52,182 nucleotides of DNA from positions 1-52,182 of the IMG/VR virus record IMGVR_UViG_3300024262_004288; one strand, written 5' to 3'. Positions 5,260 through 38,474 of the stretch are shown here, piece after piece. The notes under the pieces were generated by a model. That model did no database searches. It was not told where the DNA came from and was given only the letters and a program-made list of their open reading frames with translations. Both the position numbers and the translations under genes were made by a program. The stretch comes from a virus (taxonomy: Duplodnaviria > Caudoviricetes). Numbering within the stretch: position 1 is the first letter of the stretch; every line of letters starts with the position of its first letter.

Positions 5260-5298
5260 TTGAGTCTCCTAGACTTCTATTATATAACCCTTGATGGA

Positions 5299-6564
5299 AT
5301 GATGATGGACAACACAGGTGTAAGCGCAATTAGTCAGTTATATAAGGAGATATTTCGATATCCCTTACTTAGTAAAACACACATGCGTGTGCTCTTTTCG
5401 GAGTTTGAGGCAATAATCTTTCGGGCTTCCGATGAGCTACTGAATCAAGGTGATTTTGTTGAACATTACATCGCTGATCTACTTGTAGAAGTGTCTGCAG
5501 GAATCACGCGGGGTCGGACATTATTTATCCAACAAAAGGCTAAAGATAAATCCGATGAGCGACTATACGATGACACTCAGATAGCTGCTCTTTCTCGGGG
5601 AATGTGCTGGATGAATTTATTATCTTCAGGCAAGCCATCTATTGCCGCGACTAAACAGTGTCTTGATGATTTGCAATTTACCCGAGCTGTTTATGAGAGT
5701 ATGCTTGAGCTATTTGCCGAAGTAGTTAAGGACTATCCTGAGCAGCTATTGGAAGCTATGGAAATTCGTCAACAGATAGAAGATGGTCTTGAAGAAGAAG
5801 AAAGATATGCAGGCATCAATCAATCCTTGCTATTAACGGAGAGGGCCGCGCATATCAATAGATATGAGCTTTATCAGTTATGCCAATCTATTGATCAGAC
5901 ATTTTTGGAGCTAAAAAGTATTCGAGGGAAAGTCATGCGCCCCTACTTACGCCTGGTCTTCAAAATAGCTCGGGGTCATTCCGCTAGTGAGCAACAAATA
6001 CTGGACAATTTCCAGAATGGCGCAACGGGATTAATGCGCGCTGTTTCATATTTCGACTTTCATAACTATTCCAACTTTTCTTCTTACGCCCGTTGGTGGG
6101 TTAGTCAATCGATCTTGCTATTGTTAAAAGAACAGGCTAACTTCATTCGTCTTCCAATAGGCGTCTGGCAAAACTATAACTGGTTGGAAACAGTTAGGTC
6201 TAAGATCACCGCAGAGCAGGGTGGTTGTTCGACCGGCGTGTTAGCCAAGGAGACTGGTTATTCCATTGACCAGCTTCATTCAATCTATGAAGGTGTTGGA
6301 ACAAGTAATGTTTGTTCCTTAGATTATTTCATAGACCAAGACGAGAAAGTCCCACTTAGTAGTGTCATAGCAGATGAAACTATTAAGCAGCCCGATGAGC
6401 TAGAAGTTCCAATTACACAGTATTTAAGTTTCCTTGATGATGAACTTCGTAAGATAATCTGTTTGCATCATGGACTCTTAGAATACGTACCTCGCGATCC
6501 CTTGTCCAGATTAGATATCTACAAGGAACGCTTACGCCAACGCTGGAGGAGTGATGTCAACTAA
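5299..6564 (+). CDS. sigma70-family RNA polymerase sigma factor
   Basis: Region 2 LRLVFKIAR...QNGATGLMRAVSYFD...FSSYARWWVSQSI, IRLP, region 3.2 SLD; start moved to the ATG at 5299. Confidence 0.85.
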   Translation: MMMDNTGVSAISQLYKEIFRYPLLSKTHMRVLFSEFEAIIFRASDELLNQGDFVEHYIADLLVEVSAGITRGRTLFIQQKAKDKSDERLYDDTQIAALSRGMCWMNLLSSGKPSIAATKQCLDDLQFTRAVYESMLELFAEVVKDYPEQLLEAMEIRQQIEDGLEEEERYAGINQSLLLTERAAHINRYELYQLCQSIDQTFLELKSIRGKVMRPYLRLVFKIARGHSASEQQILDNFQNGATGLMRAVSYFDFHNYSNFSSYARWWVSQSILLLLKEQANFIRLPIGVWQNYNWLETVRSKITAEQGGCSTGVLAKETGYSIDQLHSIYEGVGTSNVCSLDYFIDQDEKVPLSSVIADETIKQPDELEVPITQYLSFLDDELRKIICLHHGLLEYVPRDPLSRLDIYKERLRQRWRSDVN

Positions 6565-13633: not shown

Positions 13634-14410
13634 ATGTCTAACTCTGTAGTAATGTTGCTATCTGGTGGAATAGATTCCACCGTTGTTGCTACCAATCTAA
13701 AGCTTGCACATGCTAAAATCCATGCGGTATTTCTTCAGCAGGAGTTGGTGCGGCATAGGCAACAGACAGAGCACATTGTTCAGTATCTTAATGAAAATTT
13801 TGAGGGCCCCGATATCGAATTTCATGCAGCCGATGTACAATCGTTACTACATATGCTCAAGTTACCAGATACAGGCTATGTACCTGGGTATCAGTTATTC
13901 AATCATTTGGTAGCTTTGGCTATGGCCGATAAATACGATACTACATTCATCTACACGGGAGAAATCCATAATGCAGTATTTGTCAGTAATAGTACGGAGG
14001 AAGATGCCGACCATCATATGTATTTAGACTTCCTAGGCAAGGAAGATGATACATTCTACGAAGCTCATTATAGTACACGAGACAAAATGGCAGAGGCATA
14101 TTCCTACGCCTATAGCGGTCATACCTGGGGCTATCGTTTTATTGATCCTTTGCTAGGATTAACAAAGTCGCAGGTTACTAAACTGGGAGTACATTTAGGT
14201 GCTCCCTTACAATTATCGGTAACCTGTCGTGCTCCCGATATGGATGAATGGTCATCCGATGACGTCTTTCATTGTGGTCGTAGTAACTGTTACTTCTGCT
14301 GTCATCGCCGCTTGGGATATCTTCGTGCAGAAATTGATGATTCAGTCAAGTATCATGTTATCGAGGATCTTCCGCCAGATATTCAGGCATTAGTTAATAT
14401 TAAGGATTGA
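13634..14410 (+). CDS. queC: divergent QueC-like PP-loop ATPase (7-cyano-7-deazaguanine synthase family)
   Basis: LLSGGIDSTV PP-loop, GYVP, PLLGLTKSQV..LG, SVTC...HCG..NCYFCCHR Zn site. Confidence 0.75.
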   Translation: MSNSVVMLLSGGIDSTVVATNLKLAHAKIHAVFLQQELVRHRQQTEHIVQYLNENFEGPDIEFHAADVQSLLHMLKLPDTGYVPGYQLFNHLVALAMADKYDTTFIYTGEIHNAVFVSNSTEEDADHHMYLDFLGKEDDTFYEAHYSTRDKMAEAYSYAYSGHTWGYRFIDPLLGLTKSQVTKLGVHLGAPLQLSVTCRAPDMDEWSSDDVFHCGRSNCYFCCHRRLGYLRAEIDDSVKYHVIEDLPPDIQALVNIKD

Positions 14411-19180: not shown

Positions 19181-21551
19181 GAAAATATCATTTCGAAATG
19201 CTCTATCCTGGTTACAGGGAGATATTCAATTAGCTGATCAGGGTCTAGTTCTAATTTGTGGGGAGAACCGCGACGCTAGTCGTAATCAAGGTAGCTCTAA
19301 CGGCGCAGGTAAAAGCTCTATCTTTGAATTATTGACACATGTATTCTATCATCAGACTAGTAAGGGGATTAAACTCGAAGCTGTTGTCAACGCAATGGTC
19401 AACGAAGATTGCGAAATTGCCGTTGATTTTAGTGTAGGTTCTAAGAAATGTAGGATTGAGCAATTTCAGGCTTCTAGAAAGCATGGTAACAAAACATTCA
19501 TTAAAGAGGACAACAAATCTGTTACTCCCCATACTCGCACCGATGCCAAGAAGTATATTCCCGATTTATTGGGATTATCCTTAGAAGAATTTCTTGGTGT
19601 TATTTACTTAAGTCAGGGATCCATTCATACCTTGATCGAGGGAACGGGTGGACTTCGGATGGATTATATCGGTCGTCTATTTCAGCTATATAGATATGAT
19701 CGCTTAGTTGAAGAGCTAAAAAACATCAGAGATACAATGAGTCCTCGCATTAATGTGTTAGAGGTAGCTGCTATCAAAGCAAGGCATATTAATGATAGAC
19801 TTGCCAATATTCCTAAGACAACACATTTAGCGGAACAAATAGATTTGATTGAAAAGGGAATTCAGCAAGCAGCAAGCCAGAAGCATGACTGGTCACGACA
19901 TGTCATTGATTTACGCATGCTTATTGAACAATTAAAAGAAAGAGAGTGTATTGAAAGTCAGGGTGCCTCTGCAGATGCCGCAGAGCAGTTGATTCGCAAA
20001 GAACAGCGCAAGGCAACGCTAGATAGTTCTATTGCTGCCATGGAACAAATGCGAACGCAGACAGTTGAAAGAAAATCTCTGGTTGCTAAGCTGGGTGATT
20101 TGAATGATATTGATCTAACGGAAATAACAAGTGAGTTAGCTGCTAGTCGTGCAATCAAAGAAGAATTGCCTCGTAAGATAACCAAAGCCAATGAAAGAGC
20201 CCGACTGGAACAGGCTGTTAGATCTGCGATAGTTGAAGCTTCTTTCGACGCTTGTGACTCTACTACATTGACTAATCTAGAGCAGACTGTAGAGAAACTA
20301 ACTAAGGAATTGGCAGGATCTCGCACCGATCTTAAACGCGATAAAGAGACTTTGCAGAATCTATCGGCAATCGATTCAACGACTTGTCCCACGTGCTTGC
20401 AAAGTGTATCTCCAGAATATCTGGGCCCCCAGCGAACCCATTATCAAGATCATGTTTCTCAGCTAGAAAAAGATGTCGCTATAGCTAAGTCTAATCTTGA
20501 TCAATTAAAGCAGGATTTGGGGATAGCCCGTCAAGTTAACAGTTGGCAAAATCAAATGCTGGGTCTACCAGCAGAAAGTCCTTTGGAACTACAGCAACAG
20601 TTTTCTTCTCTTGAAAGAAGAATAAAAGAACTGTCCGAGCAGTCTAGTGTGGCTAAGGATATTCATCTAATTAAAAGTCGCTTAGAGGTTCTACCTAATG
20701 AAGAGGTTTCTACAATTGATGAAGATCTAACTCTACTCAGAAAAAAGATTACAATTCTACAAGATGCTATCCATCGTTTAAATGCGGAGAAGTCTAGACA
20801 CGATCTCCTACAAAGATTACCCGCCGGTTCCATTAGTAGTTGCAATGATGATCTGCAGCGAGTAGAATCTTTACTTAGAGAGATCGAAAGTCTTTTGCAT
20901 GAAGCTGCTCAGATATCTGCTGCACAGAAGAGTTCATTGGAAGAGCGAACAAGGCTAGAGGACGAGCTTACTCCACTGGAAACGGATCTATCGGAATTAA
21001 AATCATTGCAACATAAGCACTACCTTTGCCAGGAGTTAATTCGAGCAATAGGAGTACTTAAACAAAAGCGCACCCGTGGAATCTTATCGGCTATTCAGAG
21101 TATCTTGCCCGCATATACGCAAATGATGTTTTCTGAACCAGGACTATCTTTTATGCTGGCAGATGATCTTGAAGAAAATTCCATTGATATTCTTGTTAAG
21201 AGATATACAAAGGTTAAAGGCAAACTAATTCCTCACACATTTCCTATTAAGAGACTAAGTGGGGGAGAGAAAAAACGCTTGGGTGTAGCTTTACTGTTTA
21301 CCTTGCAGCGAGTTCTTAGTCCAGGTAAGCAATCTAACATCTTAGTATTGGATGAAGCTGATACTGGATTAGATACCTTGGGTCGAGAAGCATTTATTCA
21401 GGCGGTACGAAGTTTGACAGGATATAGCAGTGTGTTCGTTATCACTCAAACACCAGAGATGGCTGAGGATCATTACTTCGATCAAACATGGACAATCATC
21501 AAGGAAAATGGAACTAGTAGATTGAAAATCAATAGGCCGGCTATCCTGTAA
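19164..21551 (+). CDS. sbcC: SbcC/Rad50 SMC-family ATPase
   Basis: NGAGKSS Walker A, Q-loop LSQG, coiled coils, CPTC zinc hook, LSGGE signature, VLDEAD. Confidence 0.92.
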   Translation: MMITFEKISFRNALSWLQGDIQLADQGLVLICGENRDASRNQGSSNGAGKSSIFELLTHVFYHQTSKGIKLEAVVNAMVNEDCEIAVDFSVGSKKCRIEQFQASRKHGNKTFIKEDNKSVTPHTRTDAKKYIPDLLGLSLEEFLGVIYLSQGSIHTLIEGTGGLRMDYIGRLFQLYRYDRLVEELKNIRDTMSPRINVLEVAAIKARHINDRLANIPKTTHLAEQIDLIEKGIQQAASQKHDWSRHVIDLRMLIEQLKERECIESQGASADAAEQLIRKEQRKATLDSSIAAMEQMRTQTVERKSLVAKLGDLNDIDLTEITSELAASRAIKEELPRKITKANERARLEQAVRSAIVEASFDACDSTTLTNLEQTVEKLTKELAGSRTDLKRDKETLQNLSAIDSTTCPTCLQSVSPEYLGPQRTHYQDHVSQLEKDVAIAKSNLDQLKQDLGIARQVNSWQNQMLGLPAESPLELQQQFSSLERRIKELSEQSSVAKDIHLIKSRLEVLPNEEVSTIDEDLTLLRKKITILQDAIHRLNAEKSRHDLLQRLPAGSISSCNDDLQRVESLLREIESLLHEAAQISAAQKSSLEERTRLEDELTPLETDLSELKSLQHKHYLCQELIRAIGVLKQKRTRGILSAIQSILPAYTQMMFSEPGLSFMLADDLEENSIDILVKRYTKVKGKLIPHTFPIKRLSGGEKKRLGVALLFTLQRVLSPGKQSNILVLDEADTGLDTLGREAFIQAVRSLTGYSSVFVITQTPEMAEDHYFDQTWTIIKENGTSRLKINRPAIL

Positions 21552-21571
21552 AATATGTTTGGAGGACTTAA

Positions 21572-22351
21572 ATGTTAGGGTTCGCTTATACTAGCCCAGA
21601 GGTTGTACATATCACCTTGGACCGTTCACGCTTTAAGCTATTTGTAGCTACGAAGGATGATCTATCTATCGTAGAAACTGATGGGCGTAAAGCCGTGCTA
21701 TTGGTACCTTCAATTAAGGCGCTACGCAATCTCGATCTTAAACCGTTTGGCGCGGTTGTCATTTTCGATACACCACAACTACTTTCCCGTCTTCCAGAAG
21801 TTACCATTGTTGATGCTAAACAGCATGATGGTAGCGTCTGGAATAAGCAGACGTTGGATATCTCTATTATCAACGATGCTGTTGATGGTAAGCTTAGCGG
21901 AGCACCGGCGGAGGTGGACTTGACTGTTGTGGATACAGTCTTGGCTGATTACAAGCCCCCACCAAAGAAGCGTGGTCGTTCCCGTAGCGGTTTCAGTGAG
22001 GCACTATCCAGTGTCTTAGAAAGTATGAAAGATAGCTCAGACAAAGCCGAACTAGAATTAGCCTCATGTCGTTATGTCACAGGCTTGGCGCAGGTTAAAG
22101 ACTATAATGCTGCTAAGAAGGCTGCTCTGGCTGCTGGTGCGGAAAAAGATTCTCTTGACAAGCTGCTGCGTACAATGAATGGTAAAACAGGCCAGTGCCT
22201 CTTCTCAGCATATTACCATCATTGCATGTCGGGAAAGTCTATTGCCGATGCCGCAACGGAATATAAAGTCGAAGTCGATGACCTGAACTATCTGGCCGAG
22301 ATAATCCCACCTTCAGATAAGCTCTCCTTCTTGGCCACTCCCCCCAAATAG
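21572..22351 (+). CDS. hypothetical protein
   Basis: 259-aa ORF, GGAGG SD. Confidence 0.75.
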   Translation: MLGFAYTSPEVVHITLDRSRFKLFVATKDDLSIVETDGRKAVLLVPSIKALRNLDLKPFGAVVIFDTPQLLSRLPEVTIVDAKQHDGSVWNKQTLDISIINDAVDGKLSGAPAEVDLTVVDTVLADYKPPPKKRGRSRSGFSEALSSVLESMKDSSDKAELELASCRYVTGLAQVKDYNAAKKAALAAGAEKDSLDKLLRTMNGKTGQCLFSAYYHHCMSGKSIADAATEYKVEVDDLNYLAEIIPPSDKLSFLATPPK

Positions 22352-22367
22352 ATTTCTTAACCCTTTC

Positions 22368-22428
22368 CAAGTATAATAGATATAGAAGGGTCGGGTGAAG
22401 TTTGTTTTAAACTTCACCTGATCCTTCT
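22368..22428 (+). promoter_or_regulatory. TATAAT box followed by 20-bp hairpin (unit 1)
   Basis: CAAGTATAATA at 22368; stem 22384-22403/22409-22428 with two G-U pairs. Confidence 0.65.
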
Positions 22429-22475
22429 TGTTGTACAGCTGAAACCGCGCAAACCACTCACGGGGAGATACGCAG

Positions 22476-22844
22476 ATGCGCCGTAGCGAACGGAACTTGG
22501 ATGGAGTTATTGTCTTGGTTCGGGGTCCTGGTAGGGAGTATGTACTACGAAATGAACGTCCTTGTCTGGTAGGATTGCCCAGCATCTTCGACTTAATATT
22601 ACAGCCACGCAGTGATATCGCACGAATATATTTCTTGCGTGTTGTGGCGGCTGGACAGAAATTGACAGCAGCACAGGCCAAGAAGATCGTCGGTTTGTTC
22701 AGAGGAACCGAGGCGAAGATCTTCGCCTGCACTATCCTGTACGAAACCGTACAAGATGAAGAAAATTGGGCGACAACTTTGAGCATCTTACCCACAGTAC
22801 ATGATGCTGATCGCGTTGCCAATTTATTGGGAATGGGGACGTAA
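22476..22844 (+). CDS. hypothetical protein
   Basis: 122-aa ORF with GGGGAG SD downstream of hairpin unit 1. Confidence 0.55.
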   Translation: MRRSERNLDGVIVLVRGPGREYVLRNERPCLVGLPSIFDLILQPRSDIARIYFLRVVAAGQKLTAAQAKKIVGLFRGTEAKIFACTILYETVQDEENWATTLSILPTVHDADRVANLLGMGT

Positions 22845-22882
22845 ATAATGATAGGTAATTAATCCTTTTATTACATATTTAT

Positions 22883-22957
22883 CAAGTATAATATTAATAG
22901 GAATAGGTTAGGTGAAGTATGTTTGATTTAATCTACTTCACCTAACCTATTCCTATT
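22883..22957 (+). promoter_or_regulatory. TATAAT box followed by perfect 24-bp hairpin (unit 2)
   Basis: CAAGTATAATA at 22883; perfect inverted repeat 22896-22919/22934-22957. Confidence 0.65.
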
Positions 22958-23043
22958 TTCTTTGAGGCCAAGAACAACAAATTTACTTCCGGCGATGGCC
23001 TCCGTAGTGCGCCGGTGGTATAACTTGGGGATGGAGTATCATC

Positions 23044-23463
23044 ATGGACGGAATCAAAATCGGAATCGCTGCGACCGCAACAGTCGTCGCGGTCGTTGGC
23101 ACCCTTCTTGGCGTCAAGGCAGTGAAGGGCAGGGACAAGGAGGCCAAGGCCATCCACGGCGAGCGCGCCGATGCCCGCCACTCCGCCAAGGCCACCTGCA
23201 AGGACGCGACGCACGGTGCCAAGTCCACCTGCAAGGAGGCCATCAGGTCCGCGAAGGATGAGCGGGATGCCAAGATCCGCGACGCGGTCACCCAGAGGAA
23301 CGAGGCCATCAAGGCCGCCAAGTCCGCGAAGTCCGAAGCGTTCATCGCAGCGGATGACGCGCACCAGTCAGCCCTGATGGCCTTGAAGGCGTCGCGGAAC
23401 GAGAATGAGAAGAAGGACGAGGAGCCCAAGGCCGCCAAGGGCAAGAAGTCCAAGGCCGCATAG
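23044..23463 (+). CDS. membrane-anchored Ala/Lys-rich helical protein
   Basis: N-terminal hydrophobic helix IGIAATATVVAVVGTLLGV, 11-residue-like repeats, very GC-rich third codon positions, GGAG SD. Confidence 0.75.
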   Translation: MDGIKIGIAATATVVAVVGTLLGVKAVKGRDKEAKAIHGERADARHSAKATCKDATHGAKSTCKEAIRSAKDERDAKIRDAVTQRNEAIKAAKSAKSEAFIAADDAHQSALMALKASRNENEKKDEEPKAAKGKKSKAA

Positions 23464-23474
23464 TTCACCTGAAC

Positions 23475-23512
23475 GTGGATGGGCTCTCGAGATTACTTGG
23501 GAGCCCATCCAC
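23475..23512 (+). terminator. 17-bp hairpin after the 23044 gene (terminator or processing site)
   Basis: GTGGATGGGCTCTCGAG-ATTA-CTTGGGAGCCCATCCAC; no U-tract. Confidence 0.55.
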
Positions 23513-23580
23513 ACAGGAGTTATTAAATTAACTAATACTAATACTAAACTACAATTCAAATAGTATTTAATATATCTTTG

Positions 23581-24142
23581 GGATGTGTGCCCAGCGGGCT
23601 GCGAAAGCGGCCTGCCCGGCAGGGTGTTAGCTCACTTTTCTGTTGCCAAATAGGCAATGGATTAATCCTCCTTCATGAGGTGTCTTTGGACAGTAGCTCT
23701 TTGAGATACGATCTAAATACTTAGATCCTTCCAACGAGGGACTGAGGAGGGGTAGCTTGCTACCTAAGCTCCAAAGAACTTTTCGCACAACGAGAAAAAC
23801 CGTGTAGTCGAGAGTCTTTCTTGAAGACGGAGAAACCTCCGGGGAAAGACAAGGACATCTTGACTATGTAACCAACGGGAAACAGTGGAGAGCGATACCG
23901 CCAGTATCGCCAGTAGCGGATTTCTTCTCCGCGATGGATTACCCCCACTGGAAGGATGATGGCCAATGACCTGCGCCTCAGGTATCGGAAAGGTGGCGTC
24001 ATTGTGATCCCCTACTCCGAAGAGTCCTCAACTTCAGAGTTAGCCGACGATCCTTTCTCATCAGTTGTGCGTCAAACCGTGGATAAGTGGGTGCGAAGTT
24101 CCTAGGCCCACACCTACCATTAGTAGGTCAAAGCGGAGGCGC
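23581..24142 (+). ncRNA. putative large (~560 nt) structured non-coding RNA, family unknown
   Basis: No plus-strand ORF in the track; more than a dozen nested stems, G-U pairs on + strand, GAAA tetraloop, sharp AT-rich borders. Confidence 0.7.
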
Positions 24143-24193
24143 TATTAAATTCTTGAATTGAATTATCGAAATTGAATTAAACTGAACAAACAA

Positions 24194-24296
24194 GTGGGTA
24201 CAAAACATCGTGGTACTACCTGAGGGTTACCCGCCACATCAGGGGATGCGGTGAAGCCACGATCGGCAAAACCTGGGTGCCGATCATAAAACCCGG
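24194..24296 (+). ncRNA. tandem-pseudoknot 5' leader
   Basis: GTGGGTA/TACCCGC crosses ATCGTGGT/GCCACGAT; GATCGGCA/TGCCGATC hairpin whose loop CTGGGT pairs with ACCCGG. Confidence 0.5.
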
Positions 24297-24317
24297 TGAA
24301 AGCAGAAAAAAGTAGAA

Positions 24318-25403
24318 ATGACTCAGTTGAAAGATGCGTTCGATAAAGCGGCGGACAAAGACGGTAATAAGGCCATCAAGGCCGCCGTCACTCGTGCGGG
24401 TGTGAATCCGACTAATTACGACGAGAATGCTCGGCTCGTATTCAGCACTCGTAGTGAGTGGCTACGCTTTGCGAATCGTGAGCGCGAGCTTTCCGAACAG
24501 CAGAGATCATTACAGCAGGCTATTCAGCCCAACGCACTGCGTGCTCTCGCAGAGGCGTTGGAAGTGGAGGAGATCACCGAGCTCACAGATGAGCTCGGAA
24601 ATAAGATGGCTTCTATGGACAAGTCCAAGCTCAAAGCCGCAGAGCAGAATTGGAAGGCCGCAGAGCAGCACTTCGCCGCACGCGATGCGTTGGTCCAGAT
24701 TTCAATGGAACTAAGCGCTCTCCGCAAGGAGATGAACCAGCATAAGCGGGAGCAGTTCGTCCCGCTACGCCGGAATCTGTCGAATATCCTGCGGGATCTT
24801 CCCCGTACGGAGTCATGCGGCAAGTACGCGCATGGGGCAAACGATCCCACCATTTGCGACACTTGTCGCGAGGCACTGAAGATGCGGTCCGGACCGGGTA
24901 AGATCACGAAGCAGGCTAAGAAGGCTTCGGATCAGAAGATGTTGGAATGTACCAACATGTATCCCGATTTGACCATGGCCGCCAGGCAGTCTGGATTTAT
25001 TAATACTGGCTCCATGCCCTGGGGTCAGGTCCGCAAGTACTACTTGGAAGAGGTTGGTACCTCGCCACAGCAGGGAGCACTCGAGATAGGCGAGCAGTCG
25101 GCCGTCGATCCCATCGTCTCGTGTGCGTTGCAGATCAAGTCCCTGCAACGACAGCTCGGGGCCTGCGAGACCGTCGAAGTTCCCGGCAACCTTCCGCAGC
25201 AGCTCGGCAAGGCCCGCAAGGCCGTGGAGACGAAGCGCGAGGAACTCGATGTCGCGGAGGCCAAACTCGCGGAACTCGAAGAGTTGCAGACCCGCTCCGA
25301 GCGGCCGGCTCAACTCAAGGATGAGCTCGTGGAGCAGCAGCAGGAGATGATGCGGCTCATGAACGATTCCGAGACCCCCAACGACAACAACGGGGCCGAC
25401 TAG
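24318..25403 (+). CDS. coiled-coil protein with putative zinc finger
   Basis: 361 aa, heptad-rich ends, CGKYAH...CDTC; GC-rich codons; no SD. Confidence 0.8.
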   Translation: MTQLKDAFDKAADKDGNKAIKAAVTRAGVNPTNYDENARLVFSTRSEWLRFANRERELSEQQRSLQQAIQPNALRALAEALEVEEITELTDELGNKMASMDKSKLKAAEQNWKAAEQHFAARDALVQISMELSALRKEMNQHKREQFVPLRRNLSNILRDLPRTESCGKYAHGANDPTICDTCREALKMRSGPGKITKQAKKASDQKMLECTNMYPDLTMAARQSGFINTGSMPWGQVRKYYLEEVGTSPQQGALEIGEQSAVDPIVSCALQIKSLQRQLGACETVEVPGNLPQQLGKARKAVETKREELDVAEAKLAELEELQTRSERPAQLKDELVEQQQEMMRLMNDSETPNDNNGAD

Positions 25404-25409
25404 ACAACT

Positions 25410-25696
25410 ATCCTCTGGCTATCCTGACGTCGTATATTCTACGATGATTGGTTAACCAGAGGTTAACCTGAGGGTGTACCTAATGGCGCGAAAAGAGTTG
25501 CTGATACAGCACAAGAGTTGCCACCCTCTAACTACAACTATGCCATTATTCGAAAGTGTCAAGGAACAGACTCGCCTCTAGCCCCTGACATATTTCCCAC
25601 GTTCCCCGGCGCTACCAGCGCCGGGGAGCCTAGGGAGGGTGGGTTTCCATCCAGGACGTTTAGTCCCTAACGCCAACCGACTTTTTCTCTGGCGAG
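25410..25696 (+). ncRNA. structured intergenic RNA (pseudoknotted; possible leader of the ligase operon)
   Basis: CCTCTGG/CCAGAGG, GAGGGTG/CACCCTC crossing TAATGGC/GCCATTA, 13-bp hairpin 25601-25629, CTCGCC/GGCGAG at the SD. Confidence 0.55.
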
Positions 25697-25702
25697 GAGC
25701 CT

Positions 25703-25963
25703 TTGAACGACACATCTGAAAAGGAGATTACTATAACTCTACGAGGAAATAAAATAGCAATCGACAAGATTCTAATACTAGTTGGACTTATGGAAGTTGC
25801 TGGTAATCGTACGATTGATATTGCATTATGTTCTCTAAATACTGATAAGCTAGTTAGTGATTTACCACCAGCCTTATCTGATATAGAAATGGAACTTATT
25901 CTTAATAATCAGAGAGTTATTCTTTACGATAAAAGAGGGCAGGTCCTTCTGCTGCCAGGATGA
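25703..25963 (+). CDS. hypothetical protein
   Basis: GAGGAG SD + TTG start; ATGA overlap with the ligase. Confidence 0.6.
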   Translation: MNDTSEKEITITLRGNKIAIDKILILVGLMEVAGNRTIDIALCSLNTDKLVSDLPPALSDIEMELILNNQRVILYDKRGQVLLLPG

Positions 25964-26916
25964 CTTTCCAATTTAGGGGCTGTCAGTTAGCCCGAAAGTA
26001 TACTCCATCAGATGCTATTCCCTTTCCGGTATTTGTTGAACCAAAGATTGATGGGGGCCGGTTAATCATAGCCATTGATAAGCATAAGCCAGAAGGATTT
26101 AGTCGAAGTGGTAATCCCAAACCGGGACTACTTCCTATTCTCGAACCTTTAACTGCAATTAATGGTTGGGTATTTGATTCCGAAGGATGGCGCAATAGTT
26201 GGGGCGAAACAATGAGTGTTTTCCAACGAGCCAATCCCAATCCTCAGCATCTAAAAGAGTTCCAGGTTTTCGTTTTTGATTTGATTCCAATTGCTACTTA
26301 TCCTCGGGGCGCTTGGGGAACAGATCAACGGCAACGAAAGAGTCTTCTCAAGAATGCCTTATCGCGTTTAGGTACGATGCAATTGGTCATCGATCTGGAT
26401 GCTGGAGAAGTTAATACAATTCCTTTAGGTTCTAGGGTAAGGGCGCCTAACATAGTTTACGTCAATCATGTTGAGGTAAATAACCATCGTGATATTCGAG
26501 ATGCTTACTTACTTTTCAGAGAAAAGGGTTTTGAGGGTGCGATGATTAAAGCACCACAAGCTGGTTACATGTTAGATCGTGTAGGAGCTTGGAGAAAGGT
26601 CAAACCTTTCAAAATGATCTCAGGTATAATAACTCGCTGTGTCGAGGGTGACGGCAAGAATGTTGGTCGCTTAGGATCTTTTAGGGCTCGTCTTCCCGAA
26701 GGTGGAGAATGTGGAGTGGGAACTTTCTTGATGGGTTGCTTAAAGAATGCTGAGGGCACTCCCTTAAATGATGCGGACGTTCGACAATACTTTTGGGATC
26801 GTCGAGCTATGCTAATAGGAAAAAGAATCAACTTCAAAGTTCAAGACGATAATACCCCTGTTAGTGAAGCAAGGCACCCTATCTTTGTGTCTATCGAGGA
26901 GGATAATGGCCAATAA
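25960..26916 (+). CDS. ATP-dependent DNA ligase, minimal form
   Basis: EPKIDG, FSRSG, FDSE, VFDL, EGAMIK, WRKVK, OB domain GRLGS..GVGT..RHPIF. Confidence 0.85.
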   Translation: MTFQFRGCQLARKYTPSDAIPFPVFVEPKIDGGRLIIAIDKHKPEGFSRSGNPKPGLLPILEPLTAINGWVFDSEGWRNSWGETMSVFQRANPNPQHLKEFQVFVFDLIPIATYPRGAWGTDQRQRKSLLKNALSRLGTMQLVIDLDAGEVNTIPLGSRVRAPNIVYVNHVEVNNHRDIRDAYLLFREKGFEGAMIKAPQAGYMLDRVGAWRKVKPFKMISGIITRCVEGDGKNVGRLGSFRARLPEGGECGVGTFLMGCLKNAEGTPLNDADVRQYFWDRRAMLIGKRINFKVQDDNTPVSEARHPIFVSIEEDNGQ

Positions 26917-28072
26917 GTGTGGGGAATGTGCTTGGTTAGAACAGAAATCTCGGGGCAAGACTTGCATTGACCGCGGTAAGTCAGCAGAAGATGATGCCTG
27001 CCCTGACTTTGAGGGAGCCAAGCCAGCTAGTAAAAATGCCGTGTTAATCACGGAGATGTCTGATACTGCCGGAGCTTATTTACTGATTTCTGGAGATGAA
27101 GCCAAGAAGGTTTACTCCAAACGTAAAGAGCTAACTACTCTGGGTTGGAAATGGTTTAAGAAGGATACCTATTGGTGGCACGATAAGCCAGCAGATCCTG
27201 TTGGGATCACGAATCTTCTAGAGGAACTAGAAGATATCAAGATCGAATATGATATAGGGTTCGAGTACGTAGCAGAGGACAAACCCTCTATCACTGTTAG
27301 CGAAGAGATCGGTGACATTGGTGGAATAGCTGAGAACAGTAATTGCTCTGATTGTCGTTTCTTCCGAGAGAGTGGTGCTTACCACAAAACGGACTCATGT
27401 CGGGATATGGGCAAGAAGCCTACTAATTATTGTCCGAAGTTTGAGTTAGAAGTTCGAATTGATATTGCCGATACTGGCATGGCCGAACATGAAAAGGTAA
27501 AACTAGATCACTTGGTTGATGATAAAGTTGCAATCGATGAAGAAGTAAAAGATATCAATCGTCGCTGGGAAGAGAACAAAGATGAGCTCATGACTTTCAT
27601 GTTGAGTCACGGCACGGTCACGGAGCCCAAAGAAACTTCCGTTCAAGGCGAAACTAATCCCGGGTCCCGGGTATTATTCAGCAATGGTTGGAAGGTCCTG
27701 CTTTCCTACGTTGCTAAAATGACATATAGTGAAGCTACTGCAATTAAGTATTGTACTGACCATAAACTAGATGCAGTTGCATCCAAACCAATTTTAGACT
27801 GGGATCGCTGGGAGGCCCTCCGCTTGGAGGGCAAGATTCCTAGTCAGGTAGTTAATAAGGTAGCCAAACCCAAACCACATTACACTCTAAGGTTGTTTGC
27901 AACTAAGGAGCAGGAGTGTCCTGCTTGCGGGCAAATTGTGGACAAGTCTTCTACTTTCTGTTCCCACTGTGGAACCAATATGAAAGAAAAAATTAAAGTA
28001 TGCTCCTCTTGTGGAGGCCAGCTCACGGTTAATATGGCATTCTGTGGGCAGTGTGGGACAAAGGCGGCTTAG
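26906..28072 (+). CDS. multi-domain Cys-rich protein with C-terminal double zinc ribbon
   Basis: Two CxxC...C...CP.F modules; CPACG..FCSHCG..CSSCG..FCGQCG; GAGGAGG SD, ATG 26906. Confidence 0.8.
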   Translation: MANKCGECAWLEQKSRGKTCIDRGKSAEDDACPDFEGAKPASKNAVLITEMSDTAGAYLLISGDEAKKVYSKRKELTTLGWKWFKKDTYWWHDKPADPVGITNLLEELEDIKIEYDIGFEYVAEDKPSITVSEEIGDIGGIAENSNCSDCRFFRESGAYHKTDSCRDMGKKPTNYCPKFELEVRIDIADTGMAEHEKVKLDHLVDDKVAIDEEVKDINRRWEENKDELMTFMLSHGTVTEPKETSVQGETNPGSRVLFSNGWKVLLSYVAKMTYSEATAIKYCTDHKLDAVASKPILDWDRWEALRLEGKIPSQVVNKVAKPKPHYTLRLFATKEQECPACGQIVDKSSTFCSHCGTNMKEKIKVCSSCGGQLTVNMAFCGQCGTKAA

Positions 28073-31831: not shown

Positions 31832-33223
31832 ATGAATGGTGTAGATTTAACTGAATTACTTCGGCGTGTCATAAAACTTGTGCATAAGCACATTAAAAAG
31901 GAGACTGCATCTCTTACAACGTTTGCAGTTCCAGATGATATGCTGGACATTTTGGAATTACTTGAGAACTCTTTCGAGTTCATTCATATGACTGATTCTC
32001 ATTATTTATATAGGCAGCCGGGGGTTGGGGATATAGACTTACATCTGGCCGACGGAATCGGAACGTTCGAGTTGCGACTCCGAAAAGTCCTTCCACCCGA
32101 ACTTCAACTCGAACTAGATAAGCAATTAGAGATTTGGCGGGGGCCGGAATTTTCCGATTCCCTACTCAGTCTATCCCCCCGATCATTTATTATCGAATAC
32201 ATCACACAACAGCAGTCCGGCCCACATAACGAGCTATTCCGAATCCATCGTGAACTCGTGTGGGACTATCTAAACAAAGAGCTACACAAAGAGGAGAGCT
32301 CAGAAACCATGTCGACCGCAATCACTCTACACAAGACCGAAGACAAAGATGGAAAGTACCTCCAGACCGACAAGGGACTGGCGGACAATGACGACGTCGT
32401 GAAGGCGCTCGAAGCAAGCGGCTTCGCGGTCTACGGCAAGCAGAAGCGGGCTCAGCTCTGGTGGATCGCGCGTCCCGAAGAGGACAAGGGTATCGCTACC
32501 CTGGTCAAGACGCTGAAGAAGGCTGGCGTCGAGGCCACCCTCGAGGAGCCGCCCGTTGCCAAGAAGCGGGGTCGTCCGACGAAGGACGATGAGGCCAAGG
32601 ACGATGAGGCCAAGGCCGAAGCCGCGCCGGAGCCCGAGGTGGAAACCAAGGAGCCCGAGGTGGAAACCAAGGCCGTCGAGTCCAAGGTGGAGTCCGCCGC
32701 TGCCGAACCAGAAGTCGTCGAGCCCGAGGCCAAGCCCATCGAGAAGGCCAATGGCGAGGTCATCCGTCTCTCCCGTGACACCTCCGGCAAGGAGGACTTC
32801 CTCTTCACGACCAATGACCCCGAGGATCTCAAGGACATCCTAGGAGTCCTGGAAGCGGCAGGATTCTCCCACTTCGAGAAGGATTACAAGAAGGCTCCGA
32901 AGGCCGACTACTGGTGGATTCAGACCCCCGAGAACGTCGGAGTGCTGATGACTCAGCTTCAGGAGCTGGGCACCGCGCCGGAGCTCGAAGGCTTCGCCGC
33001 CGGAAAGGCCGCGAAGGAGATTCTGCAGACCCTATTCGATGCCGCCGGCGTCAAGGCCCACATCAAAGGCAAGCTGTCGGATCCCACGGCCGAGATGAAT
33101 GGTGTGACGGTCGCGGTTCAGGAAAGTGGCTTCTTCAGTGTTGCCATCAAGACCGAGATCAACACGGCAACTACCAATATCGATGCCGTCGCGGAGTTCC
33201 TTCGCGTGGCTTCGGGCCTGTAG
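31832..33223 (+). CDS. hypothetical protein; major start probably the internal ATG 32309
   Basis: GAGGAG SD at 32291 and an abrupt switch to GC-rich codons at 32309; two similar ...LEAxGF...WWI domains and an acidic repeat linker. Confidence 0.7.
   Translation: MNGVDLTELLRRVIKLVHKHIKKETASLTTFAVPDDMLDILELLENSFEFIHMTDSHYLYRQPGVGDIDLHLADGIGTFELRLRKVLPPELQLELDKQLEIWRGPEFSDSLLSLSPRSFIIEYITQQQSGPHNELFRIHRELVWDYLNKELHKEESSETMSTAITLHKTEDKDGKYLQTDKGLADNDDVVKALEASGFAVYGKQKRAQLWWIARPEEDKGIATLVKTLKKAGVEATLEEPPVAKKRGRPTKDDEAKDDEAKAEAAPEPEVETKEPEVETKAVESKVESAAAEPEVVEPEAKPIEKANGEVIRLSRDTSGKEDFLFTTNDPEDLKDILGVLEAAGFSHFEKDYKKAPKADYWWIQTPENVGVLMTQLQELGTAPELEGFAAGKAAKEILQTLFDAAGVKAHIKGKLSDPTAEMNGVTVAVQESGFFSVAIKTEINTATTNIDAVAEFLRVASGL
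32022..32267 (+). ncRNA. structured RNA element embedded in the ORF / leader of the 32309 start
   Basis: Two perfect 10-bp nested stems, a closing stem and an 8-bp crossing pair. Confidence 0.55.
32582..32671 (+). repeat. in-frame tandem duplications (15 bp x2, 21 bp x2)
   Basis: AAGGACGATGAGGCC x2; GGAGCCCGAGGTGGAAACCAA x2. Confidence 0.9.
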
Positions 33224-33249
33224 ACTCGATCCGTAAATAGAAGATGGAG

Positions 33250-33276
33250 GCCTCGCCAGGAATTGCCTGGCGGGGC
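33250..33276 (+). terminator. GC-rich hairpin after the 32309 gene
   Basis: GCCTCGCCAGG-AATTG-CCTGGCGGGGC. Confidence 0.5.
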
Positions 33277-33289
33277 ACCCCATCAACCT

Positions 33290-33886
33290 ATGACCAATCA
33301 AACAAGAGAAGCATTTGATGCTATTTTAACTCTGCGGGAAGTTGTTGATGCTAAAACCGCAGAGCTGGAAGAGCAAATTTTAATCCCTTGCAAACGTGGG
33401 TGTTCTCGTTGCTGTTACCAGCCGATTAGTTTGTACCTAGTCGAATACCTTCTAATCAGGGAATCTTGTCGCCAGCTAAAACGGGACAAATGGTTAAGAG
33501 TTTTATCGCAAGCTGAAAAGGCTTGCCGTAAAATAGATAAGTTTATACAAGTAAATAGATTGTCAGAGTCTACAGCGGATATGCACCGCTTAGAATTAGA
33601 ATGTGAAATTCGTTGTCCTTTCCTATTTCATAACGACTGTATGATTTATGAGTATAGACCTATTTGTTGCCGTGTTTATGGTTGGCCTCAATCTTTAGGT
33701 GATGGATCGTTCTTTGGTTGCGCTTGGATCGAGGGCCCAACAAAAGTAGATATCTCCATCTCGATGGAAGCCTACATTGGAATTCAAAGCGATGCAAATA
33801 AAAGATTACACCAATCCTCAAGAATCCACGCCCCTTCCGTTTCACTGCTTCCACAATACTTGCGAGACTTGCCAGATGATTCATAA
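33290..33886 (+). CDS. YkgJ-family cysteine-cluster protein
   Basis: PCKRGCSRCC...CPFL...CMIYEYRPICCRVYG; ATG 33290 preferred because the TTG lies in a hairpin. Confidence 0.85.
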   Translation: MTNQTREAFDAILTLREVVDAKTAELEEQILIPCKRGCSRCCYQPISLYLVEYLLIRESCRQLKRDKWLRVLSQAEKACRKIDKFIQVNRLSESTADMHRLELECEIRCPFLFHNDCMIYEYRPICCRVYGWPQSLGDGSFFGCAWIEGPTKVDISISMEAYIGIQSDANKRLHQSSRIHAPSVSLLPQYLRDLPDDS

Positions 33887-35195
33887 AGCTTTCGATGCCC
33901 TTGCCTTGTTAGAGGCGGACAATAGTCGTAACGCTAAACTGGCAGTGCTAAGGGACCAAAAAGACAATAGCGTCCTTAAGCGAATATTCCAGTTAGCCTA
34001 CGATTGGATGACGCCTTACAATATTGCTCAATTAGAGAAAACCACTCCTATGGATATGCCTAGTGTTGGAGAGTGGTGTATGGCGGCCAGCTTCAAGGAG
34101 TTCGAAGAATTACTGACTGCCTTGAATAAGCGAACAATTACGGGGAATGTTGCTCGCGAACAGGTTAGCTCATTTCTATCTTCAGTATCTCCTATTGAGC
34201 ATATGTGGTATCAACGGATATTACTTCGAGACTTGCGAGTAGGGGCTAAGGAAGGAACCTTCCTCAAGGTCTGGCCGAATTTAATTGCGCAATGGGATAT
34301 CATGCTTGCGGATACTTACAAAAATCAAGCATTGACTTATCCTCTTATTGTTGAGCCCAAATTAGATGGCGTACGTATTACTATTGTCGTTAAAGACGGC
34401 AAGGGTATCGCTATGACGCGTGGCCGTCAAGATCACAGCGAACGCATGTCGCATATTATCGATCAGATTACTGCAGTTGTTCCCGGTGATAATGTTTGGG
34501 ATGGAGAATTCTTTTTCGAAACTTGGAATAAATCCATTTCGATTCTTCGTTCCAAAACAATGACACCAGCAAAAATCGCAGATTTGGCCAAGGCAAAGTT
34601 CCACTTGTTTGATTGTCTGTCCCTGGAGGAATTCAAGGCAGGCGTTAGCAAGTCTCCTTTGACCGAGAGGCGGAAGACAATTGAACGTGTCTTGGCTTAT
34701 TGGAAAGATCCTGCTAACTGGGCAGTCGGTACACCCAGAACTATTAACTTGACGGGTGTTGATCAGCATTGGGCCAAGACTGAGGAAGAGGTCATGGAAT
34801 ATTACGACCTTTTCTTAGAACAAGGTTTCGAGGGGATCATGATCAAAGATCCCCGTGGCTTATATGTCTGCAAGCGAGGGGATGCTTGGTTAAAGTATAA
34901 ACCGGAAGAAACTATTGATCTTGAGATCGTCAGAGTCAATCTAGGTAACGGTCGTCATTCGGGCCGTTTGGGTGCCTTCGATTGTCTGACCGTGGATGGG
35001 GAAGAAGTTCGTGTTGGTGGAGGATTCTCCGACCAGCAAAGAGATGAGTTTTGGGCGAAGCGAGGCGAATTGCTTGGTACAATTATTGAAGCTAAGCAGC
35101 AAAAAGAAAAAGTTAAAGTTGCTAAAGCTAGATTTCCAATATTTAAGTGTATAAGATATGATAGAGCCAAGTTTGAATTTTCTGCGAGGACTTGA
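33876..35195 (+). CDS. ATP-dependent DNA ligase (T4 gp30-like, with N-terminal domain)
   Basis: SRNAK..L, MLA, EPKLDGVR, WDGE, FDCL, EGIMIK, WLKYK, VGGGFSD, RFPIF. Confidence 0.92.
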   Translation: MIHKAFDALALLEADNSRNAKLAVLRDQKDNSVLKRIFQLAYDWMTPYNIAQLEKTTPMDMPSVGEWCMAASFKEFEELLTALNKRTITGNVAREQVSSFLSSVSPIEHMWYQRILLRDLRVGAKEGTFLKVWPNLIAQWDIMLADTYKNQALTYPLIVEPKLDGVRITIVVKDGKGIAMTRGRQDHSERMSHIIDQITAVVPGDNVWDGEFFFETWNKSISILRSKTMTPAKIADLAKAKFHLFDCLSLEEFKAGVSKSPLTERRKTIERVLAYWKDPANWAVGTPRTINLTGVDQHWAKTEEEVMEYYDLFLEQGFEGIMIKDPRGLYVCKRGDAWLKYKPEETIDLEIVRVNLGNGRHSGRLGAFDCLTVDGEEVRVGGGFSDQQRDEFWAKRGELLGTIIEAKQQKEKVKVAKARFPIFKCIRYDRAKFEFSART

Positions 35196-35587
35196 TGGCA
35201 TTTCATCTACAGGTTGTAGCGGAACGAAGAAAAAAGTTCCGCTTCCTAGTACGAGGAGAAGCATTCGATAAACGCGTTGTTGATTTTATTGCGCAGAATC
35301 TTGGCATGGAAACGACGATTGCACAAATTATCGAACTTGCGCGAGTAGACCATGGAACCTGGCTACCGGAGATCGGTAAAATAACAAGGTCAATTGCTAG
35401 ACAATATGGGGCAGAAGTTCCCGTAGGAAATGCTAATTATCAGGGGAAAATAATTTCTCCCTTAGTGTTTGATCTATCAACAGTTTTACTTTGCACCAAT
35501 TGCGGGCGTGTAGGCTCTGCGGAATGTCTCGCAGAAGGCTTCCTAGTAGATAGTCCCGCCTGTGCATATCATCGAACAAGGAGATGA
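35192..35587 (+). CDS. hypothetical protein with C-terminal Cys/His cluster
   Basis: CTNC...C...CAYH. Confidence 0.65.
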   Translation: MMAFHLQVVAERRKKFRFLVRGEAFDKRVVDFIAQNLGMETTIAQIIELARVDHGTWLPEIGKITRSIARQYGAEVPVGNANYQGKIISPLVFDLSTVLLCTNCGRVGSAECLAEGFLVDSPACAYHRTRR

Positions 35588-36528
35588 TAATGGCTAAGCA
35601 GAAGATATTTTATTGTAAGTGCAGCGACTGCATTTGGTGGAACCTTGTTGAGTGGAGGAAGTCCACTTGTGAAGGACGCCACAAGGATGGTAAGCTAACA
35701 GGAGTTGATCCTGACTTGGGTTGCAGCAATTTCAAACTGATTTCCTCTACCGTATTCTGCAGAGATTGCGCCGGCTTCGATGAGAAACCCCATCGCGGCA
35801 AGACATGCAAGGATCGGGGGTTTGATCCCAATACTCCCGTCACTGAAGTGGCCGATCGTCCTTGCCGTAGCAAGTCGAATGAAGATGGTCGCTTCGAGCA
35901 GAAGCTTGCCGTTAATATTGTCGACAATACGGACTTCTTCTATGATGGAGCCTTGGCGACAGTGGTCGTTTGTAAAAACCCACAGCCGGTGTGCATCAAG
36001 ATGGGATCTTCCGCACTGGTGGTCGTCCCACAGCGGGTGGATGATGACATCAGATTTAAGGCTTGCTTCTTCGACATGTCCAGCGAGCCTGCTGGTTGTG
36101 TTCCAATAATCATTGATGGTGCTTCGGGGCCTGTGGTCGTGACACCAGAACCCGTAGTGTCTTCGGAAGCCCCTGGACCCGTAGTCGAGGCATCTGAGGA
36201 GCCCGAGGTCGAGCCAGAGCCTGAAGTCGCGCCCGAGGTCGAGCCAGAGCCTGAAGTCGCGCCCGAGGTCGAGCCAGAGCCTGAAGTCGCGCCCGAGGTT
36301 GAGACTACCCCCGCGGTGGCTGTAGAGCCCGAAGAAGAAGAAGGATTTCCTTCCTGGCTAGATGCCAAGAAATTCAAGGACACCGTTACTCAGATGAAGG
36401 ATCTGATCGGTAAGGGTGTTCCCGGGGCGAAGGCGGTCAATCGCATGGTTCGTCTCTTCGCCACTGAGAATAGCATTGATGACGGCCAGCAGGACAAGCT
36501 ATCGGAGCTACTACTGGCCGAGCAGTAG
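35584..36528 (+). CDS. Cys-rich protein with Pro/Glu repeat linker
   Basis: CSDC...C...C and CRDC..RGKTCKDRG modules; PEVEPEPEVA repeats. Confidence 0.75.
   Translation: MIMAKQKIFYCKCSDCIWWNLVEWRKSTCEGRHKDGKLTGVDPDLGCSNFKLISSTVFCRDCAGFDEKPHRGKTCKDRGFDPNTPVTEVADRPCRSKSNEDGRFEQKLAVNIVDNTDFFYDGALATVVVCKNPQPVCIKMGSSALVVVPQRVDDDIRFKACFFDMSSEPAGCVPIIIDGASGPVVVTPEPVVSSEAPGPVVEASEEPEVEPEPEVAPEVEPEPEVAPEVEPEPEVAPEVETTPAVAVEPEEEEGFPSWLDAKKFKDTVTQMKDLIGKGVPGAKAVNRMVRLFATENSIDDGQQDKLSELLLAEQ
36201..36299 (+). repeat. 30-bp tandem repeat x3.3 (coding)
   Basis: GCCCGAGGTCGAGCCAGAGCCTGAAGTCGC repeated exactly. Confidence 0.95.
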
Positions 36529-37409: not shown

Positions 37410-38474
37410 TTGGACAGATCTCAGTTCCAGAACAATCTCGAGTCCATACTGACTCGTTCGCAAGACATTGATACAATTCTTGAGCAATTGCTCAATCATT
37501 GGAAGTTCGATTTGTTCAGTCGTAGTCCCCATCGTGGCGCGGATAGCATTATCGATCTAGACCTGGCTTGCTTCATGGCAGCCCTGGTGGATCGTGGCGC
37601 CGTCATCAATATTCCAGCATACAAGAGTGCACGGGGACGTACCCGCCGTGAAGGTGAGCATGTCGTCAGTGCAGGCAATCGCCACGGCAAGATGATGGGA
37701 TTGGTCTCCAACAAGGACGTCTTCTCGTTCAGCGTTCGAATCGATGACGCTAACGTAATGACAACCGATTCGGTGGGAGCACCCCGTAATTTCATGATCG
37801 TCGGACTCGATGGTGAATGGTACGATGGTTGGAAGACCATCGAATTCTTGCCCTCCGCGAAGGAGAACAACTTCCTGGATGCGGCAGATGCCTGGGATGG
37901 CTATGTCGATGGCAGGATCACATTCAAGCACTTCGTTCATCCCAATAGGTGGACATCCTTCTACGGCAGGCATTACTTCCTCAGTAAGACGATGATCGTC
38001 AGGCTGACCGAATATGCAAAGTTCTGCAAGAATGAGGTCGAGCGACTTCTGTCCGTTGGGGTCACCTTCCCACTGGGTGAGAAGTCCGCTCCCAAGGAAT
38101 GGCCCAAGTCTACCAGAGACGCCACAGTCGCCAAGACGTTCACAGCTTTCGAGGCTGAGGTGGAGACTCCTCCGGTGGATGGCGAGTTCGCTTCCTTCGA
38201 TGAAACGCAGGAAGATCTGGTTCGTGCTTCCCGTGAGCGTCGTCGGATGGAGGGCGCCCTGGCCCAGCTCCGCTTCGCGACTCGAGCCACGGAGCTGGCC
38301 TATTACCGACATGGATTGGGCAATAAGGTTCCAGTGTGGATCGAAGGCTCCTGGACCGAAAACTATCGAGAGGCTGGCAAGCGCAAGAACTGGAACCGCC
38401 TGCTACCCTTCGAGGATTCATCCATTGCTCTTCGCTGGCGGGCCTGGGACAAGTCCGAACGAGTAGCTCCGTAG
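37410..38474 (+). CDS. hypothetical protein
   Basis: AGGAG SD + TTG, 354 aa, GC-rich codons. Confidence 0.8.
   Translation: MDRSQFQNNLESILTRSQDIDTILEQLLNHWKFDLFSRSPHRGADSIIDLDLACFMAALVDRGAVINIPAYKSARGRTRREGEHVVSAGNRHGKMMGLVSNKDVFSFSVRIDDANVMTTDSVGAPRNFMIVGLDGEWYDGWKTIEFLPSAKENNFLDAADAWDGYVDGRITFKHFVHPNRWTSFYGRHYFLSKTMIVRLTEYAKFCKNEVERLLSVGVTFPLGEKSAPKEWPKSTRDATVAKTFTAFEAEVETPPVDGEFASFDETQEDLVRASRERRRMEGALAQLRFATRATELAYYRHGLGNKVPVWIEGSWTENYREAGKRKNWNRLLPFEDSSIALRWRAWDKSERVAP

Follow-up and report, generated by a model that had tools for sequence, protein, structure and literature searches.

The window analyzed in this study, by which we mean the entire stretch of DNA, is the whole of an IMG/VR virus record of 52,182 bases. 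CheckV places its completeness at 13%, which marks the window as one piece of a very large phage genome. Encoded here, nearly all on the + strand, is a replication, repair, and nucleotide module: a Toprim primase-like protein, a sigma factor, an Fpg glycosylase, a topoisomerase IA, a UvsX-like recombinase, QueC, SbcD, SbcC, a clamp loader, two ATP-dependent ligases, DnaB, a 5'-3' exonuclease, GTP cyclohydrolase I, and an HNH endonuclease. Several of these are placed as follows:

5260-6564: the phage's own sigma factor
13634-14410: QueC
25960-26916: ATP-dependent DNA ligase
33777-35195: second ATP-dependent DNA ligase
41980-42789: GTP cyclohydrolase I

The co-occurrence of QueC and GTP cyclohydrolase I genes suggests 7-deazaguanine modification. 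Relatives of this phage are scarce. When SbcC was compared with cultured phages (1390 records), every one fell below 60% identity, and the best-covering records were ~22% identical; the ligase has a single relative (57% identity, on a 2.7-kb contig), as does the topoisomerase (60% identity, on an 11.4-kb contig). Among billions of sequences, none of its replication proteins has more than a single relative near 60% identity, a measure of how isolated the phage is.

Within the module, a gap of 854 nt (23464-24317) lies between the stop codon of a 139-aa ORF, ending at 23463, and the ATG of a 361-aa ORFan, at 24318. The locus is laid out as follows:

23044-23463, + strand: P0001, a 139-aa ORF with an N-terminal hydrophobic helix followed by a K/A/E-rich region, belonging to no family
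23475-23512, + strand: hairpin after the P0001 stop, with 17-nt arms (88% complementary), a 4-nt loop, and no T-run
23513-23580, + strand: AT-rich block with a sigma-70-like site, TTAACT-16-TACAAT, at 23528-23555 (9/12)
23581-24142, + strand: candidate structured RNA, as first drawn
24143-24194, + strand: second AT-rich block, with TTGAATT at 24153, 24158, and 24172 and no promoter-like site called
24195-24317, + strand: proximal leader of the 361-aa ORF, its last ~22 nt A-rich and unpaired in the MFE fold
24318-25403, + strand: P0002, the 361-aa ORFan

The gap is real and non-coding. TAA, TAG, and TGA are all present in each of its six frames, and the longest open stretch is 87 codons; an alternative genetic code that would open the gap was considered and rejected, as recoding any single stop still yields at most 121 codons. 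Codon-usage log-odds trained on 35 ORFs of the window (training mean 0.26) are at most 0.02 in all six frames across nine 180-nt windows starting at 23440-24160; the gap frames are summarized as negative, with a table maximum of 0.02. The 180-nt window starting at 24250, which overlaps the 361-aa ORF, scores 0.22 in the frame of that ORF, and the flanking ORFs score 0.34 (P0001) and 0.30 (P0002) in frame. Ten stop-to-stop pieces of the gap were searched against protein families: none matched in PHROG, and one of the ten had Pfam matches, both at E 0.16-0.17 and far under the cut-off. The same sequence is present in a separate assembly of DNA run X1, the possible source run, on a 13,336-nt contig over 22895-28000, and since the two show zero differences across the gap, the region is no assembly artefact.

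The first-pass annotation, a reading of the letters and open reading frames, had described a non-coding gap of 850 bp in an otherwise gap-free genome. Both the gap and its non-coding character are borne out: all frames are stopped, codon usage is non-coding, and no protein family is matched. "Gap-free" holds more loosely, in that these 854 nt are the largest stretch lacking coding signal in an otherwise tightly packed window, which also contains two shorter stretches without ORFs, one of 302 nt (2178-2479) and one of 299 nt (25404-25702). The latter includes a GC-rich hairpin with 18-nt arms at 25596-25634.

By sequence comparison, the candidate RNA is a member of no described family. Rfam includes ROOL, GOLLD, OLE, raiA, HEARO, RNase P, 6S, SRP, and group I and II introns; when all 4227 models of Rfam 15 were searched against the whole window, the gathering score was reached only by two distant tRNAs. 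At E<=10, five matches fall within 23400-24400, all with E>=3.5 and scores of 12-19 bits against cut-offs of 39-87, and none is to a large RNA family. ARAGORN recovers two tRNA-Thr genes and no tmRNA in the window, the Rfam tmRNA models are likewise unmatched, and group I and II intron models have no match at E<=10 in 23400-24400. The earlier statement that the region lacks tmRNA and intron signatures is upheld by these searches, and with no strong Rfam match, its proposed novelty with respect to known families stands as well.

Homologues of the RNA were sought widely, in collections that may lack records of this genome or its nearest kin, and none emerged. There was no blastn match among 50,697 INPHARED phage records; three exact 23-27-mers had 0 matches each in IMG/VR; and a gapped 22-base pattern had 2 matches in 596 Gb of GTDB prokaryote genomes, against ~2 expected by chance, with no further similarity around them. 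Searches of IMG/VR anchored on the 361-aa ORFan, the ligase, and a 259-aa ORF returned no relatives. A metagenome scan with a ligase alignment recovered five loci (ligases 26-32% identical), none similar to the RNA, and missed the 57% relative. A literature search brought up only the known ROOL/GOLLD reports. As it stands, the case is built on one sequence, and the candidate is a lead, not a discovery.

The RNA was originally drawn as a densely folded molecule of ~560 nt (23581-24142) with a preference for the + strand. Over this span, the + strand folds at -202.8 kcal/mol (z -3.92, with 0/100 dinucleotide shuffles as good) and the - strand reaches z -2.38, in agreement with the proposed strand preference. 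The excess resides in the 5' portion. From 23581 to 23985, the + strand folds at -151.2 kcal/mol (z -4.59, 0/100 shuffles equal; - strand z -2.59); 150-nt windows on the + strand show excess only across ~23500-23950 (z -3.2 to -3.8), and from 23950 to 24320 it is gone (z +1.1 to -1.0). The 3' remainder, 23986-24317, has z -1.56, with 9/100 shuffles equally good. Because the folding excess ends at ~23956, the structured object is ~376 nt long (23581-23956) and not 562 nt, and the original extent has to be cut back to a structured part of ~376-405 nt. The predicted fold consists of the following parts:

23581-23668, + strand: 5' domain of three hairpins, closed loosely by GGAU/AUCC (P 0.51)
23588-23621, + strand: first hairpin of the 5' domain, GAAA-capped (P 0.90-1.00)
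23622-23637, + strand: weaker hairpin of the 5' domain (P 0.64)
23639-23661, + strand: third hairpin of the 5' domain (P 0.98)
23669-23956, + strand: large multi-branched domain with a closing long-range helix, 23669-23674/23951-23956 (P 0.87)
23682-23749, + strand: poorly determined part of the branched domain (P 0.07-0.54)
23750-23765, + strand: hairpin within the branched domain (P 0.97)
23780-23796, + strand: further hairpin within the branched domain (P 0.79)
23800-23878, + strand: irregular 79-nt hairpin (P 0.85-1.00)
23883-23950, + strand: three-way junction (P 0.94-0.97)
23957-24142, + strand: 3' part of the RNA as first drawn, with hairpins such as 24112-24117/24123-24128 and no excess over shuffles

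Most of the core is covered by helices with P>=0.85, and G-U pairs make up 14 of the 133 MFE pairs. All stems named in the first-pass annotation exist in the sequence at about the positions given there, and most belong to the MFE fold with P 0.94-1.00, among them 23594-23602/23607-23615 (P 1.00), 23639-23647/23653-23661 (P 0.98), 23804-23813/23858-23867 (P 0.99), 23883-23888/23945-23950 (P 0.97), 23892-23898/23904-23910 (P 0.94), and 23916-23920/23928-23932 (P 0.97). The exception is the helix TCTTTGGA/TCCAAAGA, which, together with the stems it was thought to enclose, is not the preferred fold; this is the region of the poorly determined 23682-23749. The further suggestion of a ribozyme found nothing in its favor.

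How unusual such folding is within this genome was gauged with 92 non-overlapping 562-nt tiles over the whole window, each compared with 15 shuffles. The median tile has z -1.11, seven of the 92 have z<=-3.9, and the tile covering most of the candidate reaches only z -3.27 at this shuffle number. Four of the seven high-scoring tiles lie around the locus (21919-24728): those from 22481 and 24167 mix AT-rich blocks with GC-rich genes, which can inflate z, and the tile from 23043 contains the self-complementary K/A-rich gene. The other three are distant and in mostly coding sequence. With 100 shuffles, tile 563-1124 (coding except for its first 19 nt) has z -4.90 on the + strand and -3.34 on the - strand, the same strand asymmetry as the candidate, and tile 33159-33720 (coding except for a 39-nt intergenic hairpin region) has z -5.49 and -5.43, respectively; the mostly coding stretch 46085-46646 is also far above its shuffles (z -5.4, 15 shuffles). 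As mostly coding tiles match the candidate, folding energy and strand asymmetry alone do not single the region out. The excess folding that the first-pass annotation called for is present in the core beyond its own shuffles, but it is shared with mostly coding sequence.

The tile 23043-23604, which holds the 139-aa gene, shows the most extreme folding in the window (z -10.1, 15 shuffles). It contains many internal inverted repeats arising from AAGGCC/GGCCTT-type codon strings, and long ORFs are present on its opposite strand too; codon usage still prefers the + frame.

These controls lend some weight to a functionless interpretation, in which the gap is a long spacer or 5' UTR, transcribed between a promoter and its gene, and its fold expresses the ordinary self-complementarity of the genome. 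Mostly coding tiles fold as well as the candidate or better relative to shuffles, the stretch 23682-23749 is poorly determined, and everything past 23956 is unremarkable; the lineage is so sparsely sampled that a lack of homologues says nothing either way, and huge phages tolerate more non-coding DNA. We nevertheless consider this interpretation unlikely, given that a window maximum of 854 nt without coding signal sits amid otherwise tight packing, that the folding is strand-asymmetric with many helices at P>=0.9, and that the deepest coverage in an RNA library falls exactly on the structured part.

That library, X2, is a 103-million-letter marine metatranscriptome whose study and habitat label differ from those of DNA run X1. 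It contains 67% of the sampled words of 23450-24330, and five of its contigs, all strand-less, map within 20000-28000:

23604-23980: 377 nt with 0 differences, word depth 17.3, the maximum of the locus
24086-24334: depth 7.5, spanning 24142, the second AT-rich block, and the ATG of the 361-aa ORF
24375-24634: depth 6.2
24850-25071: depth 4.7
25337-25503: depth 2.9

Four of the five show no difference from the window, and one has a single differing letter. The deepest coincides with the structured core; the other four lie on or reach into P0002, one of them (24086-24334) from the leader. The contigs are confined to 23604-25503, and the empty flanks are not evidence of silence. The transcript anticipated in the first-pass annotation is thus represented in an RNA library, by assembled contigs that give mean depth only, carry no strand or ends, and may include DNA carry-over; a single contig over two features does not prove one transcript. 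The last contig extends 100 nt beyond the stop of the 361-aa gene, to 25503, into the 299-nt ORF-free stretch. Phage sequence that is identical save for 1 letter in 1,275 (23604-25503) thereby occurs in two studies, a subsurface metagenome (DNA) and a marine metagenome (RNA). Two additional runs, X3 and X4, overlap the window solely within the low-complexity 139-aa gene, over 33-37 nt and with 4 differences, before diverging, and were set aside as other organisms.

The contig depths are what a free-standing RNA gene might produce. Under this alternative, the locus encodes a new large ncRNA of ~380-560 nt, transcribed from a promoter of its own and ending near 23980 or 24142; it may act in trans as a scaffold, a decoy, or an RNP partner, possibly with the 361-aa protein, as first suggested, while the ORF may be read from a second start in the AT block 24143-24194 or by read-through. 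The core contig is 2.3 to 6 times deeper than the ORF contigs, although contig depth is a poor measure of abundance, and it matches the zone of folding excess, with its GNRA-capped hairpins, three-way junction, and long-range closing helix; no known family matches it, but neither do the searches yield homologues that would constitute a family. One contig, however, runs across 24142 into the ORF, and this bridging makes a 5' leader no less likely than an RNA gene standing by itself. P0002, moreover, has no recognizable RNA-binding domain. We regard an independent RNA gene as rather unlikely.

The AT-rich block 23513-23580 would be the promoter of the RNA, as judged from its sequence. Its sigma-70-like site is the only one on the + strand in 22800-25700; it lies just upstream of the core, and none precedes the ORF. 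Such sites are no more frequent than in shuffles (2 found, 1.8 expected), and, as a sigma factor is encoded by the phage itself, promoters of this phage may differ from the sigma-70 type. A 15-mer at 23515-23529 recurs at 24137-24151 with 13/15 letters identical, the second copy falling just after the last hairpins of the RNA as first drawn, and an AT-rich block follows each copy. This arrangement, a hairpin and then the 15-mer and an AT-rich block, before the RNA and again before the ORF leader, is congenial to a free-standing RNA gene; yet by our arithmetic chance alone would produce such a repeat ~0.3 times in a region as large as this one, and an alignment of the two AT blocks with two other promoter-like regions reveals nothing in common beyond the 15-mer. 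Neither candidate 3' end of a free-standing RNA, 23980 or 24142, is terminator-like, nor is there a terminator-like site after the 139-aa ORF, and the second AT block has no promoter-like site. The hairpin at 23475-23512 is possibly the 3' end or a stabilizer of the upstream unit. Before the ATG of the 361-aa ORF, a GGAG-type ribosome-binding site is absent; neighboring genes have GGAG. A Bacteroidota-type -7 box (TAnnTTTG, 23573-23580) was considered and dropped, as the motif is not tied to gene starts and the neighbors use GGAG.

The repeated 15-mer also invites a reading of the region as a remnant, whether a decayed gene, an ORF-less intron, a small mobile insertion bounded by TATTAAATT direct repeats, or an origin transcript resembling an RNA II primer. 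In its favor, a unit of 622 nt is bounded by a direct 9-mer (a 15-mer if 2 mismatches are allowed), the surrounding genes serve replication and repair (SbcCD, clamp loader, ligases), and each side has an AT-rich block in which TTGAATT clusters, including an inverted copy at 23553-23559. Against it, our arithmetic has a repeat of such length arising by chance, the window shows no enrichment of TTGAATT (18 found vs 13.5 expected), and cumulative GC skew climbs steadily across the locus with no turn. No protein-family trace is found in any frame. An intron is unlikely because both flanking ORFs are intact, the first closing with its own stop (23461-23463) and the second opening with its own ATG (24318); the intron models have no match, and no splice joint is seen in the X2 contigs, which can miss rare forms. 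All of these origins together strike us as highly improbable.

Upstream of the locus, two promoter-like AAGTATAATA boxes precede the 122-aa and 139-aa ORFs (22369-22430, 22884-22957). Each is followed by a strong hairpin, the arms of which share GGTGAAGT/ACTTCACC, the second forming an inverted repeat of 24 nt without mismatch; across the window, GGTGAAGT is seen 7 times vs 1.36 expected, a number reached by 0/100 shuffles. In the assembly of the DNA run there is a break at 22878-22924, and on one contig 22385 is linked to 22878 through 2477 letters of other sequence. Given the break and the alternative join, the AAGTATAATA/hairpin element is probably repeated elsewhere in the genome.

The gene downstream of the core offers few clues of its own. 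P0002 finds only itself among 5.8 billion clustered proteins (8000 word-sharing candidates scored) and, with HMMER, only itself among 1.84 billion representative proteins; matches in Pfam, PHROG, and PADLOC are at chance level at most, and the ESM Atlas has no usable match. Its AlphaFold (AF2) model is all-helical and of low confidence (pLDDT 54.7). Both flanking ORFs are outliers in GC3, at 0.86 for P0001, the window maximum, and 0.70 for P0002, against a window median of 0.41. A moron is an add-on phage transcription unit with deviant composition and its own promoter and terminator. On the basis of the GC3 outliers and the unit's own promoter-like block, the 139-aa gene and the 361-aa unit would fit a moron-type add-on cassette: the composition is deviant, the promoter-like site occurs at chance level, and a terminator-like site is missing. 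GC3-rich ORFs (0.58-0.86) are scattered among AT-richer core genes, the full set lying at 23044-23463, 24318-25403, 31832-33223, 35584-36528, 37410-38474, 44479-44967, and 45542-46219. The six that were scanned, all but 44479-44967, have no Pfam family, and the set resembles a patchwork of add-on genes that differ in origin or in expression pressure.

Of the interpretations considered, we favor, at a little less than even confidence, a structured 5' RNA module belonging to the transcription unit of the 361-aa ORFan. Transcription would start in the AT-rich block, at ~23530-23580, and continue through the 361-aa gene to at least 25503, such that the gap would be the non-coding 5' part of one unit. 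The first ~380 nt (23581-23956) would fold, on the + strand only, into the three-hairpin 5' domain and the large branched domain. We infer that this structured part is present in RNA at a higher level than the coding part, and that the module either outlasts the body of the mRNA or is made in excess over it, whether because it resists 5'-end-dependent decay, because termination is partial, or because the RNA is cleaved in the AU-rich sequence that follows. It may then affect, in cis, how long the transcript lives, or it may be set free as a stable RNA. As the start codon of P0002 is open and lies ~360 nt from the core, riboswitch-type occlusion is argued against. Several observations weigh against the 5' module as a whole: its RNA evidence consists of contigs, its folding is matched by mostly coding tiles, it has no homologue to show covariation or selection on the structure, and its promoter count is at chance. 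A bolder proposal, which we hold to be doubtful, is that the ~380-nt core (23581-23956) is the first of a new class of large structured phage RNA, a stable species either released from the ORFan mRNA or made ahead of it; it would be trans-acting as a scaffold or decoy while this deep-branching huge phage infects its host, and perhaps bound by the co-expressed coiled-coil ORFan protein.

The region is of interest under either form of the RNA. Large structured phage RNAs such as ROOL and GOLLD are among the few RNA classes of unknown function, and new examples are rare. Should the core prove to be a separate, stable RNA species, structural and functional studies would gain a tractable new subject; if it is only a leader, it would be an unusually long one, marking an actively expressed ORFan cassette. 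There is direct evidence of its presence in environmental RNA from a second study, and the core would be plentiful enough to have assembled at depth 17 out of a metatranscriptome of 103 million letters.

Comparison with known systems places the candidate close to several, with clear differences from each. ROOL and GOLLD are Rfam families associated with phages and with nearby tRNA genes; a family of this kind is defined by base pairs that covary across several diverged homologues. A recent report describes them as large, ornate RNAs of unknown function (bioRxiv 10.1101/2024.12.08.627333). The candidate resembles them in being hundreds of nucleotides long, rich in hairpins, and located in phage or prophage DNA. 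It differs in that it is unmatched in Rfam even at E<=10 and has no consensus structure, in that the nearest tRNA genes are 26 kb away, and in that its well-folded part is ~380 nt and seems continuous with the downstream mRNA. The likeness to phage morons lies in the promoter-like block, the deviant GC3, and the insertion between core replication genes; unlike them, the unit has no intrinsic terminator, and its cargo is an ORFan and a long ncRNA, not a recognizable host-fitness gene. The long structured 5' leaders known from operons of bacteria and phages form a third class of comparison, comprising riboswitches, T-boxes, put/EAR-type antitermination RNAs, and 5' stabilizer hairpins. The candidate is far larger than these, matches no Rfam cis-regulatory model, and has a core that ends ~360 nt before an unpaired start codon, and no terminator/antiterminator alternative was found in it. 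However, like such leaders, it would lie at the 5' end of its unit and on the coding strand, and, as in 5' stabilizers, a hairpin stands within ~10-25 nt of the inferred start.
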